A stretch of 64,000 nt of DNA from a phage: sequence record PQ724394.1; one strand, 5' to 3'. The notes below the pieces were generated by a model. That model saw only the letters and a program-made list of their open reading frames with translations. It made no database searches and was not told where the DNA came from. A program made the position numbers and the translations under genes. How positions within the stretch are numbered: the first letter of the stretch is position 1; every line of letters begins with the position of its first letter. Below are positions 22,477 through 46,439 of this stretch, one piece after another.

Positions 22477-22740
22477 TTATTTCATATTATTGAAATAATC
22501 TTCCGCATCAAAATCGTTATCGTGATAAACTTTGGTAGACAATTTGACGTAACCTTCGGCAGCAAACATATTAACCACAACCTTTACGGTATACCATTGT
22601 CCATCATCATTACCCATTACTGCGTAAGTTTCAAATATGGGATGGTCATCACCTATAACCTTAATATCGTTAACAGTAGCACCAAATTCTTCAGGAACGC
22701 ATTTCATAAAGAAATTAAACAATTCACCGTAATTATCCAT
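22477..22740 (-). CDS. hypothetical acidic protein (about 87 aa)
   Basis: ATG at 22740 preceded by AAGGGGAG RBS and a PeSL-like promoter. Confidence 0.5.
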   Translation of the reverse strand: MDNYGELFNFFMKCVPEEFGATVNDIKVIGDDHPIFETYAVMGNDDGQWYTVKVVVNMFAAEGYVKLSTKVYHDNDFDAEDYFNNMK

Positions 22741-22804
22741 TTTACTCCCCTTCACACTGTTGTTTTGATAGGTCTATAGTATCACGTTTAAAGGAGGTGT
22801 AAAC
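22741..22804 (-). promoter_or_regulatory. PeSL-like early promoter cassette
   Basis: Minus-sense GTTTACACCTCCTTTAAACGTGATACTATAGACCTATCAAAAC. Confidence 0.6.
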
Positions 22805-22838
22805 AACTTTGTGAAATTATTTTTAGATTAAACCCCCT

Positions 22839-22858
22839 AAAAGGAGACCGAAGTCTCC
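22839..22858 (-). terminator. hairpin terminator candidate (GGAGAC-UUCG-GUCUCC)
   Basis: Minus-sense GGAGACTTCGGTCTCCTTTTAG downstream of the 22864..23481 gene. Confidence 0.45.
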
Positions 22859-22863
22859 TTTCA

Positions 22864-23481
22864 CTATTTACGAGTCTTTTCGAACTGAGCTGCGTCTCCG
22901 GCCAGACGACGTGCTTGACGAAGTTTGTTATCAATTTCTTCGCGCATAGGCTGGGTGTACTTAAGGCCTTCAACTGTCAGGTAAAGACGATAGAGGTCCG
23001 GCGTGTCCAGGTTGTTAATGTGTTGGCCGTTACGAAGGGCATTGAATTCACGAACAACCTGTTTTGTTTCAGATTCGATTTCTGAAATCAAAGAAGCTAG
23101 CTGGTTATATTTTTTAACAATAGTAGTGGTGTCAAACTTGATTTTAGATTTAGGAGCTTCTTTTACAGGCTCTGCTTTAGGCGCCGGTTTCGGTGCTGCA
23201 ACTTTGGTTGGGGCTGCTGGTTTAGCAACAGGAGCTTTAGCTGGTTTAGCAGGCTTAGTAGCGCCACCGGCTACGATATCTTTAAAAGCTTTGGAAGCTT
23301 TGTAATATTCTTTCTGGCTACTAGTATCAAAACCATACATATCATAAACGTTTTTAAAGAACTCAGTAGTGGTTTTAGTCCCGGAAATTTTATCATAAGC
23401 CGCTTGCCACATATCTTTAGTCATGCGCAAGCCGGCTTCACTCAGAACGCTTTCGTTCAAAAATTCATTGTAAGTTTTCAT
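22864..23481 (-). CDS. internal-protein-like protein with capsid-targeting leader and Ala/Pro/Lys-rich histone-H1-like region (205 aa)
   Basis: N-terminal MKTYNEFLNE leader; low-complexity PAKPAKAPVAKPAAPTKVAAPKPAPKAEP segment; TATAAATA late promoter upstream. Confidence 0.55.
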   Translation of the reverse strand: MKTYNEFLNESVLSEAGLRMTKDMWQAAYDKISGTKTTTEFFKNVYDMYGFDTSSQKEYYKASKAFKDIVAGGATKPAKPAKAPVAKPAAPTKVAAPKPAPKAEPVKEAPKSKIKFDTTTIVKKYNQLASLISEIESETKQVVREFNALRNGQHINNLDTPDLYRLYLTVEGLKYTQPMREEIDNKLRQARRLAGDAAQFEKTRK

Positions 23482-23509
23482 TATTGTTTCCTGTGTTAAT
23501 TAACTTATC

Positions 23510-23517
23510 TATTTATA
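23510..23517 (-). promoter_or_regulatory. late promoter TATAAATA (minus strand)
   Basis: Minus-sense TATAAATA about 30 nt upstream of the ATG at 23481. Confidence 0.55.
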
Positions 23518-23518
23518 C

Positions 23519-23546
23519 AAAAAAGGCCCAACCTTTTGGAAGGGCC
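23519..23546 (-). terminator. rho-independent terminator
   Basis: Minus-sense GGCCCTTCCAAAAGGTTGGGCCTTTTTT immediately downstream of the 23552..24106 gene. Confidence 0.6.
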
Positions 23547-23551
23547 GTAAA

Positions 23552-24106
23552 TCAGTTCTTGTAGAACCGGAACGGGTTCACGTGGAAGGCTAACATAGCT
23601 TTAGGGATTTTACGAGACAAAAGGCTCTTAAGCTTCCATCCACAGTACACGCGAAGGTAAAATGTGATTCCGCCGACCTTAAGATAAGGAACTGAAGCAA
23701 ATACACCCCAGGCATCATCATTCCACATCCATAACCAACCATGGTGGGCTTTATCAGGAGAACCTGATTCTACGTCAGGATTGCCGCGATAATGGAATTC
23801 TGAACTACAATCACGTCCTAGTTTATGATAAGCAAAGTTATAAGCTTTATTTCGCCATAGCCAAGCTACTCTCTGGAGATAAACACCACCAGGCATTTTC
23901 CTGATTTTAGCCCAACGTTTAATATGACCTTTATCGCCGTCAATTGGATTATCGTATGTCATCATCCAATCAAAACCGTATGGCAATTTACCAGTCTTTT
24001 TATTGTAGAAAGGAACCACAAAAGGCGCAAGGATAACAGCCAGAACCATAGAGATAAAATCTAGTGGGACCAACAGAATCCAACTCAAATATTTTAAAAG
24101 TTTCAT
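23552..24106 (-). CDS. membrane-anchored hypothetical protein (184 aa)
   Basis: N-terminal TM helix WILLVPLDFISMVLAVILAPFVV; flanked by two near-identical terminator/late-promoter modules. Confidence 0.5.
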   Translation of the reverse strand: MKLLKYLSWILLVPLDFISMVLAVILAPFVVPFYNKKTGKLPYGFDWMMTYDNPIDGDKGHIKRWAKIRKMPGGVYLQRVAWLWRNKAYNFAYHKLGRDCSSEFHYRGNPDVESGSPDKAHHGWLWMWNDDAWGVFASVPYLKVGGITFYLRVYCGWKLKSLLSRKIPKAMLAFHVNPFRFYKN

Positions 24107-24132
24107 ATTATTTCCTAAGTTAGTTTACTGTA

Positions 24133-24140
24133 TATTTATA
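24133..24140 (-). promoter_or_regulatory. late promoter TATAAATA (minus strand)
   Basis: Minus-sense TATAAATA upstream of the 23552..24106 gene. Confidence 0.55.
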
Positions 24141-24141
24141 C

Positions 24142-24169
24142 AAAAAAGGCCCAACCTTTCGGAAGGGCC
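24142..24169 (-). terminator. rho-independent terminator downstream of tRNA cluster
   Basis: Minus-sense GGCCCTTCCGAAAGGTTGGGCCTTTTTT; near-identical to the copy at 23519..23546. Confidence 0.6.
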
Positions 24170-24180
24170 TTTAACCTAGG

Positions 24181-24482
24181 GTAACCTTGTCGGGGTTCCA
24201 CCTGCTAGGCAAGTGTTTGTACGAAACGCCGGGATTCGAACCCGGTTATTAAGCAGTTGACGCTACTCAATATTTTTTTAAAAGGCCATATCTCGACCAT
24301 ATCCGAACGTTCCGTCAAAAACGCTACTCGGCTTACGGCAAAGATATTTCCTCGAATCGATAATTCGATGCGCCGTTTCAGCTGTGATAGTAAAGAACCA
24401 GAACACAGTAAAACTGTGGGAGGAACTATACTCCAGGGAACTTCAGTCCGACGACTTACCGGTAGCGACCCGGTTTCTTGTT
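24181..24482 (-). ncRNA. candidate structured stable RNA(s) or degenerate tRNA-like elements adjacent to the tRNA cluster
   Basis: No credible ORF; contains canonical T-arm-like CCGGG-TTCGAAT-CCCGG and several hairpins but no complete cloverleaf by hand. Confidence 0.25.
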
Positions 24483-24558
24483 TGGTCGAGACAGTAGGGA
24501 TCGAACCTACGACCCAGGACTTAGAAGGTCCTTGCTCTTCCTTCTGAGCTATGCCTCG
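24483..24558 (-). tRNA. tRNA-Arg (anticodon TCT)
   Basis: Hand-folded cloverleaf: acceptor CGAGGCA/TGTCTCG, anticodon loop CTTCTAA, T-arm GTAGG-TTCGATC-CCTAC, encoded CCA. Confidence 0.7.
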
Positions 24559-24562
24559 TATT

Positions 24563-24637
24563 TGGCGGACATGCATGGATTCGAACCATGGACCAATTGA
24601 TTAACAGTCAACTGCTCTACCGCTGAGCTACACATCC
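24563..24637 (-). tRNA. tRNA-Asn (anticodon GTT)
   Basis: Hand-folded cloverleaf: D-arm GCTC/GAGC, anticodon loop CTGTTAA, T-arm CATGG-TTCGAAT-CCATG, encoded CCA; acceptor stem has two G-U pairs. Confidence 0.6.
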
Positions 24638-24641
24638 GAAT

Positions 24642-24715
24642 TGGTGGCCCTGGGTGGAATCGAACCACCATCCAGCGATTATGAGTCGCTCGCTTGACCG
24701 TCCAGCTACAGGGCC
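24642..24715 (-). tRNA. tRNA with CAT anticodon (Met or lysidine-modified Ile)
   Basis: Hand-folded cloverleaf: acceptor GGCCCTG/CAGGGCC, anticodon loop CTCATAA, T-arm GGTGG-TTCGATT-CCACC, encoded CCA. Confidence 0.7.
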
Positions 24716-24800
24716 TTAATTCTATTATGAAAGGCTCTTTGAGGGAAGAACCTTTGGTAATAGAGGGTATTAATGATAGAGTAATAATATCACATAATTC

Positions 24801-25085
24801 TTAAAGCATATTAATGTAATCAAGTTTAATAGAAGCAATCTTCAAAGGATTTTTAAAGATGTCGTATTCGACCAACCCATTTTCATTTGCCGTATAAAAA
24901 GTAAAGTTAACAGAATTATAGCGTTGGCTGTTAACTTTGAGTTTAACATCGCTTGAACTACGGCCAATATTAACCTGTTGAACATCAAGCACAGCATCTT
25001 TGCCGTAATTTCGAATCAACAACTCAGCTGCAACCTGATCGGATTTATAGCCATTCTCTGGATTAGTAACCTTAACGTATAACAT
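24801..25085 (-). CDS. hypothetical protein (94 aa)
   Basis: ORF between tRNA cluster and ipI-like region. Confidence 0.45.
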   Translation of the reverse strand: MLYVKVTNPENGYKSDQVAAELLIRNYGKDAVLDVQQVNIGRSSSDVKLKVNSQRYNSVNFTFYTANENGLVEYDIFKNPLKIASIKLDYINML

Positions 25086-25749: not shown

Positions 25750-26004
25750 TTATTTTAGGTCTTCTAGACGTTTCTTCATCTTAGAGCCATTCTTAGCAAT
25801 TTCGCCAGCGTCTGAACATAGAGCCAAAAGGGCTTTAACTTTAGTCTGGTCACCTTTAAAGGAACTCGGGTCAACAGAATCAGCAAGTTCTTTAATACGC
25901 GCGAACAAACGTTCGGCTTCAGCTAAAGCAGTACCAAGTTTTACTTCCATACCGTGTGAGGATTCGGTTAGAGGTTGCGCAGAAAATTCTTGATAAGTTT
26001 TCAT
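25750..26004 (-). CDS. internal-protein-like protein with capsid-targeting leader (84 aa)
   Basis: N-terminal MKTYQEFSAQ leader; ipI position downstream of 57B. Confidence 0.55.
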   Translation of the reverse strand: MKTYQEFSAQPLTESSHGMEVKLGTALAEAERLFARIKELADSVDPSSFKGDQTKVKALLALCSDAGEIAKNGSKMKKRLEDLK

Positions 26005-26022: not shown

Positions 26023-26924
<902 letters not shown>

Positions 26925-29646: not shown

Positions 29647-29654
29647 TATAAATA
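29647..29654 (+). promoter_or_regulatory. late promoter TATAAATA for gene 53
   Basis: TATAAATA about 30 nt upstream of the gene 53 ATG. Confidence 0.6.
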
Positions 29655-29661
29655 TTAATAT

Positions 29662-29669
29662 TATTTATA
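29662..29669 (-). promoter_or_regulatory. late promoter TATAAATA for gene 4 (divergent)
   Basis: Minus-sense TATAAATA about 27 nt upstream of the gene 4 ATG. Confidence 0.55.
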
Positions 29670-43871: not shown

Positions 43872-46406
43872 ATGATTAACAAATTGGAACTTAGTGAGTT
43901 ACCATTTGTTGACGGCGTACCTGATGCTCCTCAAAAGCGTATCCAATGGATACGCGAGGGTGATTGTATGTCTGCAGCAAAAACAAAATACGGCAATGAA
44001 GGTAATTTGAACGCTGCTGCTTTAGGAGTTCAGAAAAACGTAGAAGCTCTTGATGCCAACGATTTAAAAACTGCTGATAAAGTTAATGAGCTTATAGAAA
44101 ACGTTAATAATATCAATGACGCTTTAGAAATGTCAACAGATATTTCCATCATTCAACAAATAGAGAAAAACCGTGTTGATATTGTAGACCTTAAAAAAGT
44201 CACCGAAGATACAACAGAAAAATTGGACACCTTAACAACCAATTTTGATTTCTTGCGTGAAGATGTTGGATATCATGACCCTTTACAAGATGGGCCTTAT
44301 TTAACTGTACGTGAAAATATTGTTCTTCTTAAAAATGAAATTGGTCACTATGAGGACCAGGATATAAACGGTAATCCTTTACCTCCAGGTGAAACTAGTG
44401 AAGCCACTGGTATAAAACGCCGCATCATGGATAATACCACTGAATTGGTGGACCATCGTCTTCGTATTGATACCCTTGAAAGAAACTATGAAGATTCTGA
44501 TGTTGGGCAATTAGGTATTAAACTAAATGAAATTCGTGCCGAATTAGGACCACATTCTGATACGGTAGGTAAACAACCCGCTTACACCCGAATTTCAGTA
44601 TTAGAAACGGCTGCAGTTAATTTTAATACGGCTATTGACGAAATTAAGGATAATATTGATTTCTCTGGTATGCCTATAAAGGACCGAGTAACTACTTTAG
44701 AAAGCAAAACCTTTACCTTAGAAAATTCAGTTAACGTTGATTTAAAACCTAGAGTAACTTCTATAGAAACTCAAATCGGTTCTGAGTCTGCACCAGCATC
44801 TATTAATGGACGTTTAAGTGGGCTTCGTACCGATGTAAATGATTTAAAAACCGTTGTTGGTAATAGTTCTAGTGAAGGACTTCGTTTCCAGGTTTCCGAT
44901 ATTAATCGACGCCTTGGTAGTGAAGTGTCTCCTGCCGCTGGCACTATTAATAAGCGTTTGAATGATGTTATTATTCAAGCAAACCAATCTACCTCGTCCA
45001 TCCAGGATATTCAGGTAGAAATTGGTAACAACCAATCCGGTATAAAAGGTACTTTGCTTAAGCTCACAAATAAGGTTGACGGAACGAACCCTAACGGAGC
45101 TACCGTAGAAGAACGTGGTCTTATTAATGCGGTTACTTCTTTAGAAACCCAGATGCAAGGTAAATTAGGTGACGCGCCTTCTGATGGTAAACTCTATGCA
45201 CGTCGAAATGCGGCATGGGATGAAGTTGTTAATAATTCCACAGAAATAGAAACCGTTAAAGCCGATTTGGTTGTTACCAATGGTAAAGTGACCGCTTTAA
45301 CTTCCAGAGTAGATGATAATGATACTTCTATTTCATCTCTTAATACTCGCACTACTGCTCTAAATACTTCGGTTGGTGAGATTAAAGCCGATATAGTTTC
45401 TATAAAGGCTAAAGATGTTGAACAGGACGGTCGTTTAACTTCTTTGGAAGAGGCTGATGTTACTATTAACGGTAAAATTGCTGCTCTCGAAACTAAGACA
45501 GATACCACTGATGATGATGTCACAGCACTGGCTTTAGACGTTTCTTCTTTAGAGAACCAATTGACTCCTATAAAAGCCGATATTACCAAAAACAAAGGTG
45601 ATATTGTTGCCTTAACCGGTCGAGTGGCTTCTACTGAAGGCGAAATTACCGCAATTAAAGTTGATACAGCCAAAATTGCTCCTTTGACTACTAGAGTTAC
45701 TACGGCAGAAGGTAAAATCACTACTTTAGAAACAGGGCTTGCCGCTGTTAAAGTCGAATCCGATAAGGTAGCAGGTATTAATACCCGTTTAGGTACGGCA
45801 GAAGATGACATCGGAACACTTGAAACGGGTTTGGCTGAAGTTAAGGGTGAAGCCGATAAAGTAGCTGCTATAGATACCCGTTTGGGTGTTGTTGAAGCTG
45901 AAGTTGGTAAAGTAGCTTCTATAGATACCCGTTTAGGCGATGTTGAAGCTGAAGTCGGTACTCTTGAAACAGATTTATCTACTGTTAAAGGTAAAGTTGG
46001 TACTCTTGAAACAGGTTTGGCTGCCGTTAAAGTCGAATCCGATAAGGTAGCAGGTATTAATACCCGTTTAGGTACGGCAGAAGGTAAAATAACTACCCTT
46101 GAGTCTGGCTTGGCTGCTGTTGAAGTTGAATCAGATAAAGTAGCAGGGATTGATACCCGTTTAGCTACTGTTGAAGGCGAAGTTAGTACTCTTGAAACAG
46201 GTTTAGCTGCTGTTAAAGTTGAATCTGATAAAGTTGCTGACTTAGGAACCCGTTTAACCGCTGCCGAAGGTAAAATTACGGCCTTAGAAACAGAATTATC
46301 TAAACGTCCACCGGTGGCTCCTGCCGCAGACGGACTTCCGTATGTTCTGGTTGATAACGCATGGGTATTATTGTCTGATTTTGTGACTTTAAACTCAGCA
46401 CCATAA
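43872..46406 (+). CDS. wac: fibritin (neck whiskers), expanded coiled-coil
   Basis: N-terminal LPFVDG... and C-terminal foldon-like ...YVLVDNAWVLLSDF as in T4 wac; 844 aa versus 487 aa in T4 owing to tandem coiled-coil repeats. Confidence 0.9.
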   Translation: MINKLELSELPFVDGVPDAPQKRIQWIREGDCMSAAKTKYGNEGNLNAAALGVQKNVEALDANDLKTADKVNELIENVNNINDALEMSTDISIIQQIEKNRVDIVDLKKVTEDTTEKLDTLTTNFDFLREDVGYHDPLQDGPYLTVRENIVLLKNEIGHYEDQDINGNPLPPGETSEATGIKRRIMDNTTELVDHRLRIDTLERNYEDSDVGQLGIKLNEIRAELGPHSDTVGKQPAYTRISVLETAAVNFNTAIDEIKDNIDFSGMPIKDRVTTLESKTFTLENSVNVDLKPRVTSIETQIGSESAPASINGRLSGLRTDVNDLKTVVGNSSSEGLRFQVSDINRRLGSEVSPAAGTINKRLNDVIIQANQSTSSIQDIQVEIGNNQSGIKGTLLKLTNKVDGTNPNGATVEERGLINAVTSLETQMQGKLGDAPSDGKLYARRNAAWDEVVNNSTEIETVKADLVVTNGKVTALTSRVDDNDTSISSLNTRTTALNTSVGEIKADIVSIKAKDVEQDGRLTSLEEADVTINGKIAALETKTDTTDDDVTALALDVSSLENQLTPIKADITKNKGDIVALTGRVASTEGEITAIKVDTAKIAPLTTRVTTAEGKITTLETGLAAVKVESDKVAGINTRLGTAEDDIGTLETGLAEVKGEADKVAAIDTRLGVVEAEVGKVASIDTRLGDVEAEVGTLETDLSTVKGKVGTLETGLAAVKVESDKVAGINTRLGTAEGKITTLESGLAAVEVESDKVAGIDTRLATVEGEVSTLETGLAAVKVESDKVADLGTRLTAAEGKITALETELSKRPPVAPAADGLPYVLVDNAWVLLSDFVTLNSAP
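45650..46300 (+). repeat. intragenic tandem repeats (about 93 nt / 31 aa units) within wac
   Basis: Repeated TRLGTAEGKITTLETGLAAVKVESDKVAGIN-type units; a roughly 65-nt near-identical DNA segment recurs at about 45736 and 46021. Confidence 0.8.
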
Positions 46407-46409
46407 TAA

Positions 46410-46429
46410 AAGGGCTTCGGCCCTTTTTT
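46410..46429 (+). terminator. rho-independent terminator after wac
   Basis: AAGGGCTTCGGCCCTTTTTTG immediately after the wac stop. Confidence 0.75.
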
Positions 46430-46431
46430 GC

Positions 46432-46439
46432 TATAAATA
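46432..46439 (+). promoter_or_regulatory. late promoter TATAAATA for gene 13
   Basis: TATAAATA 22 nt upstream of the gene 13 ATG. Confidence 0.65.

Follow-up and report, generated by a model that had tools for sequence, protein, structure and literature searches.

Why should a phage gene lie between two nearly identical copies of what looks like a transcription terminator fused to a late promoter? We addressed this question for a window of 64,000 nucleotides (nt) (sequence record PQ724394.1) of a Dhakavirus, a JS98-like T4-type coliphage, in which an open reading frame (ORF), here named ORF184, is flanked by two such modules on the minus strand. A first-pass annotation had proposed that the gene was inserted as a cassette by recombination between short regulatory repeats, or could be deleted through them. 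Comparison with related phages supports this proposal through chimeric single modules at gene-less sites, a second locus and breakpoints inside the module. We consider cassette shuffling by recombination between short regulatory repeats the best explanation, with a probability of about 0.78; the modules mark, and probably also mediate, the gain or loss of ORF184.

The direct repeats, at 23510-23546 and 24133-24169, are 37 nt each, one more than the 36 bp initially given, and are identical at 36 of 37 positions. Their near-identity was confirmed, as was the single difference (T 23537 versus C 24160, in the hairpin loop), and the similarity reaches 42 nt at 93%. Allowing up to three mismatches, we found no copy in the 64-kb window beyond these two and no match in 100 shuffles of the window. 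Read on the minus strand, both copies have the form GGCCCUUCC-(G/A)AAA-GGUUGGGCC, U6, G, TATAAATA. ViennaRNA predicted the same hairpin for both (-20.0 and -14.7 kcal/mol in 61-nt contexts), with a stem of 5+2 bp around a tandem U.U, a GNRA (or AAAA) tetraloop and U6 after it. Since TATAAATA, the exact T4 late consensus, is also present in both, the proposed combination of hairpin terminator and putative late promoter in minus sense stands at the level of sequence. T4 late promoters depend on gp55, gp33 and gp45 and start ~6 nt past the box. In the window, 16 TATAAATA boxes occur versus 7.4 expected, and only three of the 16 directly follow a strong hairpin and T-run: those of the two modules and a box at 46432.

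The remaining signals are arranged accordingly on the minus strand. Each module runs from hairpin and U6 through a single nucleotide to TATAAATA, and then to a Shine-Dalgarno sequence and an ATG, a stem-loop-before-promoter layout. A late promoter box thus precedes ORF184, and the two boxes lie 26 and 28 nt 5' of the ATGs of ORF184 and of its neighbour ORF205, respectively, with AGGAAA ribosome-binding sites. When we scanned for sigma-70 promoters, copy 1 gave no match, and the sole candidate, at 24134-24107, was weak (9/12). By sequence, both modules have the hallmarks of intrinsic terminators, a GC-rich hairpin directly before a U-run where a transcription unit ends. They were recognised by folding, since the stem is interrupted by the tandem mismatch and neither was detected by the built-in terminator scan. 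Across T-even phages, the two outer hairpin pairs vary in a compensatory way (GC/AU/GU and GC/CG), a small sample that is supportive only, and the T4 hairpin has G.U and A-U at the positions where others show U.U U.U. Copy 2 therefore reads as the resident terminator of the tRNA/rnaC operon followed by a putative promoter serving ORF184, and copy 1 as a predicted terminator of ORF184 followed by a candidate late promoter for ORF205.

Related genomes differ in precisely this unit. Filled sites, with the order module-ORF184-module-ORF205, were found in about nine phages (MN04, NC-G, Esco_phi_B-01, KIT01, UP19, JS98, IME281, EcWhh-1 and AnYang), and at least 11 phages carry ORF184 with another left-hand neighbour. 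Six have empty sites: dhaeg and IME08, scored from aligned sequence, and dhabil, CLB_P2, C6 and SHP1, scored as gene-less from BLAST coverage. In gene-less phages, ORF205 directly follows a single module. In dhaeg and IME08, read in minus sense, the rnaC trailer (the context of copy 2) leads into one chimeric module and then into the ORF205 leader (the context of copy 1), and filled and empty sites differ by exactly the repeat period, 623 bp. The comparison of relatives for presence or absence of the gene, as suggested in the first-pass annotation, thus yielded a precise 623-bp indel with one module left at the empty sites. Rather than an ancient block with divergent flanks, we found conserved flanks around a variable gene.

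Further rearrangements broke within the module itself. In JS10- and QL01-type phages, homology is interrupted inside it and begins at 23517/23518, between T-run and promoter box. JS10-type phages keep the hairpin and T-run after ORF184, followed by an early promoter and orf133, ORF205 and the gene e.8 being gone. In QL01 and vB_EcoM_005, the late promoter and ORF184 are separated by another, spliced-in internal protein (IP)-like gene (MKTYNEFLTEQ...) that brings a terminator of its own; QL01 uses an ORF184-type leader and vB_EcoM_005 an ORF205-type one. With at least seven arrangements, the locus is hypervariable; it thus appears to be a hyperplastic region whose joints are the hairpin, the late box, the leader and the IP leader codons.

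The pattern recurs at a different locus in another genus. In the Mosigviruses LF82-1, LF82-2, LF82-7, AV114 and PTK, a 74%-identical ORF184 homologue lies downstream of the antiholin gene rI, between two GCCCCTTCCGAAAGGTTGGGGC copies 623 bp apart, of which the upstream one is followed by T5 and then GTATAAATA. The leader of this cassette is related to that of ORF184 and contains 'guaaacua'. While 23 records hold most of the rI-locus query, rows spread over the other matches are 623 bp shorter; the number of such shorter records, ~140, is an estimate with 32 low-identity hits set aside. Empty rI sites have one hairpin within the same flanks, with the loop TTAT in Mizar and GAAA in IMG/VR contig L030. 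The hairpin pair can also hold other cargo: in Tequatrovirus fPS-65, it flanks a different, IP-like gene, g136c, with GTATAAATA on the upstream copy. At this site, only one hairpin is present in RB69 and in T4, and what comes after it in RB69 matches the sequence after the downstream copy of fPS-65. In Mosigvirus LF82-7, hairpin and late promoter are also found ahead of a 65%-identical ORF205 homologue, which suggests that hairpin-late promoter-ORF205 may be the older arrangement, into which ORF184 was inserted.

Direct repeats around an insert whose length, 623 bp, is the same at both loci could also be a target-site duplication or the terminal repeats of a transposon, or an assembly artefact. 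We judged these explanations extremely improbable and rejected them. The cargo is a single gene of the DUF7338 family, with no transposase or integrase, so that the usual mark of a transposon or insertion sequence, a transposase together with a short target duplication, is missing. Moreover, 37 bp is far above typical target duplications, and the repeat, with its functional signals, pre-exists at empty sites. An artefact is contradicted by the presence of the arrangement in many independently sequenced genomes.

We also asked how the hairpin is distributed outside this cassette. In about 670 records, from Tequatrovirus, Mosigvirus and further genera, the shared part of the locus is limited to 24131-24290 (~90% identity), comprising copy 2 and the rnaC trailer; the similarity thus ends at the border of TATAAATA. 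The T4 counterpart of this hairpin, GCCCCGACCGAAAGGTTGGGGC, comes after rnaC and the rnaC trailer. Annotators of fPS-65 labelled the corresponding site 'terminator' and 'predicted late promoter', and those of Kha5h and GiZh labelled it as rnaC followed by a terminator. The T4 position and these independent annotations imply that the copy 2 hairpin terminates the tRNA/stable-RNA operon. Beyond this hairpin, the sequence is hypervariable. Which hairpin type is present depends on the phage genus and not on the cargo: Dhakaviruses carry GGCCC at each of their three sites, the uvsY-operon terminator among them, and Mosigviruses carry GCCCC at the sites examined, namely the end of the tRNA operon and both sides of the rI-locus cassette. 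Such genus specificity would fit either resident flanks or homogenised copies. The third Dhakavirus hairpin, which has a T-run and no late promoter, lies outside the window between the convergent genes uvsW.1 and uvsY.-2 and was seen in vB_EcoM_FB (2008-2033 of the locus), JS98, IME281 and QL01. The search for further copies proposed earlier thus found none in the window, and relatives hold this hairpin-only copy at the far end of the uvsY operon, downstream of its genes.

Exact matches to the 18 nt of the hairpin core, CCCTTCCGAAAGGTTGGG, tandem T.T and GAAA loop included, were additionally present in ~12 unrelated IMG/VR viral contig families. Its carriers come from freshwater and marine metagenomes and include a giant-virus metagenome-assembled genome; most of these cores have other outer stem extensions and a T-run and are terminator-like. 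In 596 Gb of prokaryotic genomes, the core occurs 29 times versus ~17 estimated by chance (assuming uniform base composition, both strands). We rejected a host-derived terminator, the prokaryotic count being close to this estimate.

The hairpin could itself be the target of an enzyme that recognises its structure or sequence, for example endonuclease VII, by cruciform or mismatch cleavage, or a nuclease of the homing type, with exchange proceeding through break repair. Consistent with this, the Mosigvirus repeat is essentially hairpin and T-run alone, breakpoints cluster at the hairpin edge, and the outer pairs co-vary around a tandem T.T (A.A) mismatch that is unusual and yet conserved. Homing-endonuclease genes occur in the tRNA regions of AnYang and T4. 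Arbiol et al. leave site-specific recombination open, and T4 deletion endpoints described by Mosig lie at GGGC/GCCC inverted repeats (PMC2839356); the hairpin holds both motifs. However, no nuclease or recombinase gene is present in the cassette or its neighbourhood in the window, the terminator role alone explains conservation of the hairpin, and the Dhakavirus repeat runs through the late promoter, as simple homology predicts. We therefore regard a nuclease target as very unlikely. Also quite doubtful is a T-even integron-like system, in which the hairpin CCCTTCC-GAAA-GGTTGGG would be the recombination site for a phage structure-specific enzyme. Cassettes of late promoter, gene and hairpin would then hop among hairpin-bearing terminators and genera, after rnaC, rI and the uvsY operon.

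Recombination between the repeats, our preferred explanation, could operate as follows. The two 37-nt units would be copies of one composite of intrinsic terminator hairpin, U-run and gp55-type late promoter, with copy 2, which T-even genera have in common, representing the terminator that the tRNA/rnaD/rnaC operon had ancestrally. The cassette would consist of the copy 2 late promoter, the leader, the DUF7338 gene and the copy 1 hairpin, a self-contained late-expression unit. Because it would have the resident hairpin on one side and the resident ORF205 late promoter on the other, a genome with the cassette has the module twice, as a direct repeat. Copy-to-copy recombination would therefore remove exactly 623 bp and leave one chimeric module. 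Possible routes include homologous recombination, unequal crossing-over of co-infecting genomes, copy-choice and mini-circle excision. Installation, at any site with a similar hairpin, could occur by the reverse reaction, or by a double crossover with a donor phage within hairpin and promoter homology. In each case, no gene is left without its terminator or promoter, and recombinants should therefore remain viable. The identity of the copies covers the loop, the spacer G and the tandem T.T mismatch, for which no signal function is obvious, and we infer that the modules themselves are the recombination substrates. An original insertion with later losses by several routes seems more likely than the other direction; insertion and deletion yield the same junctions, and the T5/T6 and GAAA/AAAA module variants do not separate them.

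Several points weigh against this explanation. In T4, recombination efficiency drops steeply below ~50 bp; the 37-bp repeats are short for T4 homologous recombination, and the events must therefore be rare. Rare events are adequate on evolutionary time scales. With homologies of 52 bp, T4 recombination is efficient (PMC9712115). It may also be that the empty state is the ancestral one, and a phage could gain the gene by an ordinary double crossover with a filled phage in long flanking homology, for which repeats are unneeded. With two full copies in 64 kb and one hairpin-only copy in relatives, the repeat is local and does not form a genome-wide family. Late transcription and termination at the modules are predicted from consensus sequence. 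Finally, IME341 (at ~1050-1130 of the locus) holds an ORF184 remnant in which the first 17 nt, ATGAAACTTTTAAAATA, are fused to the last ~55 nt, and VR5 runs after ORF184 into the terminator of ORF205, without copy 1 and without ORF205. These remnants show that ORF184 is also being lost by repeat-independent deletions.

Such losses are among the arguments for a passive role of the repeats, in which their near-identity would be a by-product of function or descent and ORF184 would be gained and lost via general recombination in long flanks. A terminator-TATAAATA composite with a different hairpin does exist at 46432, and T-even genomes are mosaic by general recombination. Here, the e.8 segment at 22500-22700 is 98% identical to that of dhaeg, which has an empty site, versus 82-87% to those of JS98 and MN04; this pattern of identities indicates a recombination mosaic within 1 kb of the cassette. 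Yet function does not require identity at 36 of 37 positions including loop, tandem mismatch and spacer. The first insertions at this locus and at Mosigvirus rI, moreover, lacked long flanking homology, and still their junctions lie in the hairpin, and the breakpoints of JS10- and QL01-type phages lie inside the module. A passive role thus appears unlikely.

Among known systems, the modules most invite comparison with the promoter-early and promoter-middle stem-loop elements, PeSL and PmSL (Arbiol et al. 2010, PMC2839356; Comeau et al. 2014, PMC4122927), which flank indels in T4-type phages and for which mini-circles were demonstrated. In the account given for PeSLs, an ORF between direct stem-loop/promoter repeats can be excised, perhaps as a mini-circle, and put back at a different copy, and this is the simplest account here too. 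As in those systems, a stem-loop immediately precedes promoter, Shine-Dalgarno sequence and ATG, and copies flank small accessory ORFs in a hyperplastic region. ORF-less relatives keep one chimeric element (at the Dhakavirus locus and the Mosigvirus rI locus), the same ORF recurs elsewhere in genome context, bounded by the element, and transcription signals of recombinants are intact. By contrast, the box is a gp55-type late TATAAATA and not a sigma-70-like early promoter (TTGACA/TTTACW N17 TATAAT-like) or a MotA middle promoter. The stem-loop also differs from that of PeSLs in being a strong GC-rich intrinsic terminator with GNRA loop and U-run, and there are two full copies (three hairpins) per genome rather than dozens. 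Unlike PeSL/PmSL exchange with its demonstrated mini-circles, the present case is known from sequence comparison. With a late consensus box where an early promoter is expected, the module is not a PeSL in the strict sense; by analogy, we view it as a likely late-promoter counterpart of PeSL/PmSL shuffling. No description of such a late-promoter version was found in the literature searched.

A second comparison concerns IP genes. Repoila et al. reportedly described in 1994 that variable IP genes are shuffled between T-even phages at loci with conserved regulatory bounds; the rnaC-e.8 locus is said not to be among the two IP loci that they named. The neighbouring cassettes (ORF205, QL01 'IPx' and fPS-65 g136c) resemble IP genes in starting with an MK(T/S)Y..EF leader, whereas ORF184 has no IP leader and is a membrane-anchored DUF7338 protein. 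IP-associated elements have early promoters and weak AT-rich stem-loops (PMC2839356). The cassette further resembles a lambdoid moron in combining an autonomous promoter, an accessory gene and a terminator, dispensable and placed between two resident genes. It differs in that its G+C content equals that of its neighbours, its flanks are duplicated resident signals and its promoter is expected to depend on phage late functions. Novel ORFs of T4-like phages are generally not moron-like, and late promoters were found only before conserved late genes (Nolan et al. 2006). The late box before ORF184 makes the cassette an exception to this generalisation.

Features of the ORF184 locus, with coordinates in the window
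Feature	Coordinates	Strand	Description
Unit upstream of copy 2	24170..24715	-	tRNA-Met/-Asn/-Arg 24483-24715, rnaC-like segment ~24219-24315, trailer
Module copy 2	24133..24169	-	hairpin GGCCCTTCCGAAAGGTTGGGCC 24148-24169, T6 24142-24147, TATAAATA 24133-24140
ORF184 leader	24107..24132	-	26 nt; ribosome-binding site uacaguaaacuaacuuAGGAAauaau-AUG
ORF184 (cargo gene)	23552..24106	-	184 amino acids; DUF7338 / phrog_2143, N-terminal transmembrane helix, alpha/beta domain
Module copy 1	23510..23546	-	hairpin GGCCCTTCCAAAAGGTTGGGCC 23525-23546, T6 23519-23524, TATAAATA 23510-23517
ORF205 (phrog_2280)	22864..23481	-	starts MKTYNEFLNE; own, different terminator ~22833-22856

The cargo had been called a membrane-protein gene bracketed exactly by the repeats. 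The ORF is genuine: the protein matches the Pfam family DUF7338 over its full length (E 2.9e-63), and its N-terminus, MKLLKYLSWILLVPL, is a hydrophobic membrane helix. It lacks the MKTYQEF-like capsid-targeting leader of internal proteins, which the prohead protease cleaves. The bracketing is nearly exact, with 5 nt between the stop codon and copy 1 and the 26-nt leader between copy 2 and the ATG. An AlphaFold2 model (mean predicted local distance difference test score, pLDDT, 94.9) has the N-terminal helix at residues 2-33, followed by the alpha/beta domain; no solved structural relative was found. The ORF184 protein is 99% identical to its JS98 and MN04 homologues, and the gene is absent from dhaeg and evidently dispensable. 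DUF7338 homologues occur in ~590 phage records, including Dhaka-, Gapriver-, Karam-, Pseudoteven-, Slopek- and Felixounaviruses and others. We rejected a foreign origin by composition, the G+C content of the gene (~0.41) being the same as in neighbouring DNA.

The locus illustrates clearly, in natural genomes, how small accessory genes are exchanged among T4-type phages while transcription stays intact, with regulatory signals as exchange points, and its natural 'before and after' sites are unusually clean, at two loci in two genera. The gene-shuffling scheme itself is already described for T4-type phages; the late-promoter form is the new part, extending the PeSL/PmSL idea, so far applied to early and middle promoters, to late promoters. 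It also runs against the generalisation that accessory ORFs of T4-like phages are early and late promoters confined to conserved late genes. In practical terms, stocks of JS98-like therapeutic phages could give rise to a specific 623-bp deletion, as predicted from the 37-nt repeats, and the module pair marks a permissive site for insertion of late-expressed payloads. DUF7338, predicted here to be a widely travelling, dispensable, late membrane protein, is a reasonable target for functional study.

Over 22800-24800, MN04 covers the window at 100% with 94% identity and JS98 covers 89% with 96% identity. The order on the minus strand is tRNA-Met, tRNA-Asn, tRNA-Arg, an rnaC-like segment with trailer, copy 2, ORF184, copy 1, ORF205 and e.8. 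ARAGORN called a 97-nt 'tRNA-Phe(aaa)' at 24219-24315 (-), a segment whose counterpart by alignment in T4 is the trailer and 3' portion of rnaC (species 1 stable RNA). It lies within a ~143-bp indel, roughly 24215-24360, present in MN04 and absent from JS98, dhaeg and IME08, so that the stable-RNA gene is itself polymorphic. Rfam returned only the three tRNAs above threshold in 23400-24900 and no match for the module or the rnaC-like segment. The start of ORF205 resembles the capsid-targeting leader of T4 internal proteins, and its centre is Pro/Ala/Lys-rich and of low complexity. Together with 25750-26004 and 26023-26232 (all minus strand), it is one of three ORFs that begin with MKTY(N/Q)EF or MKSYKEF, an internal-protein-like leader; on account of these, the rnaC-e.8 interval behaves like an additional internal-protein locus.

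Two further arrangements of late boxes were observed in the window. The second terminator/late-promoter composite, at 46405-46439 (+), consists of AAAGGGCttcgGCCCTTTTTTGC followed by TATAAATA, its hairpin being unrelated to that of the modules. A near-palindrome (TATAAATATTAATATTATTTATA) at 29647-29669 contains two exact TATAAATA boxes, one per strand and separated by 7 nt; each box is located in the leader of a divergently oriented neighbour gene, and the pair may form interleaved divergent late promoters.

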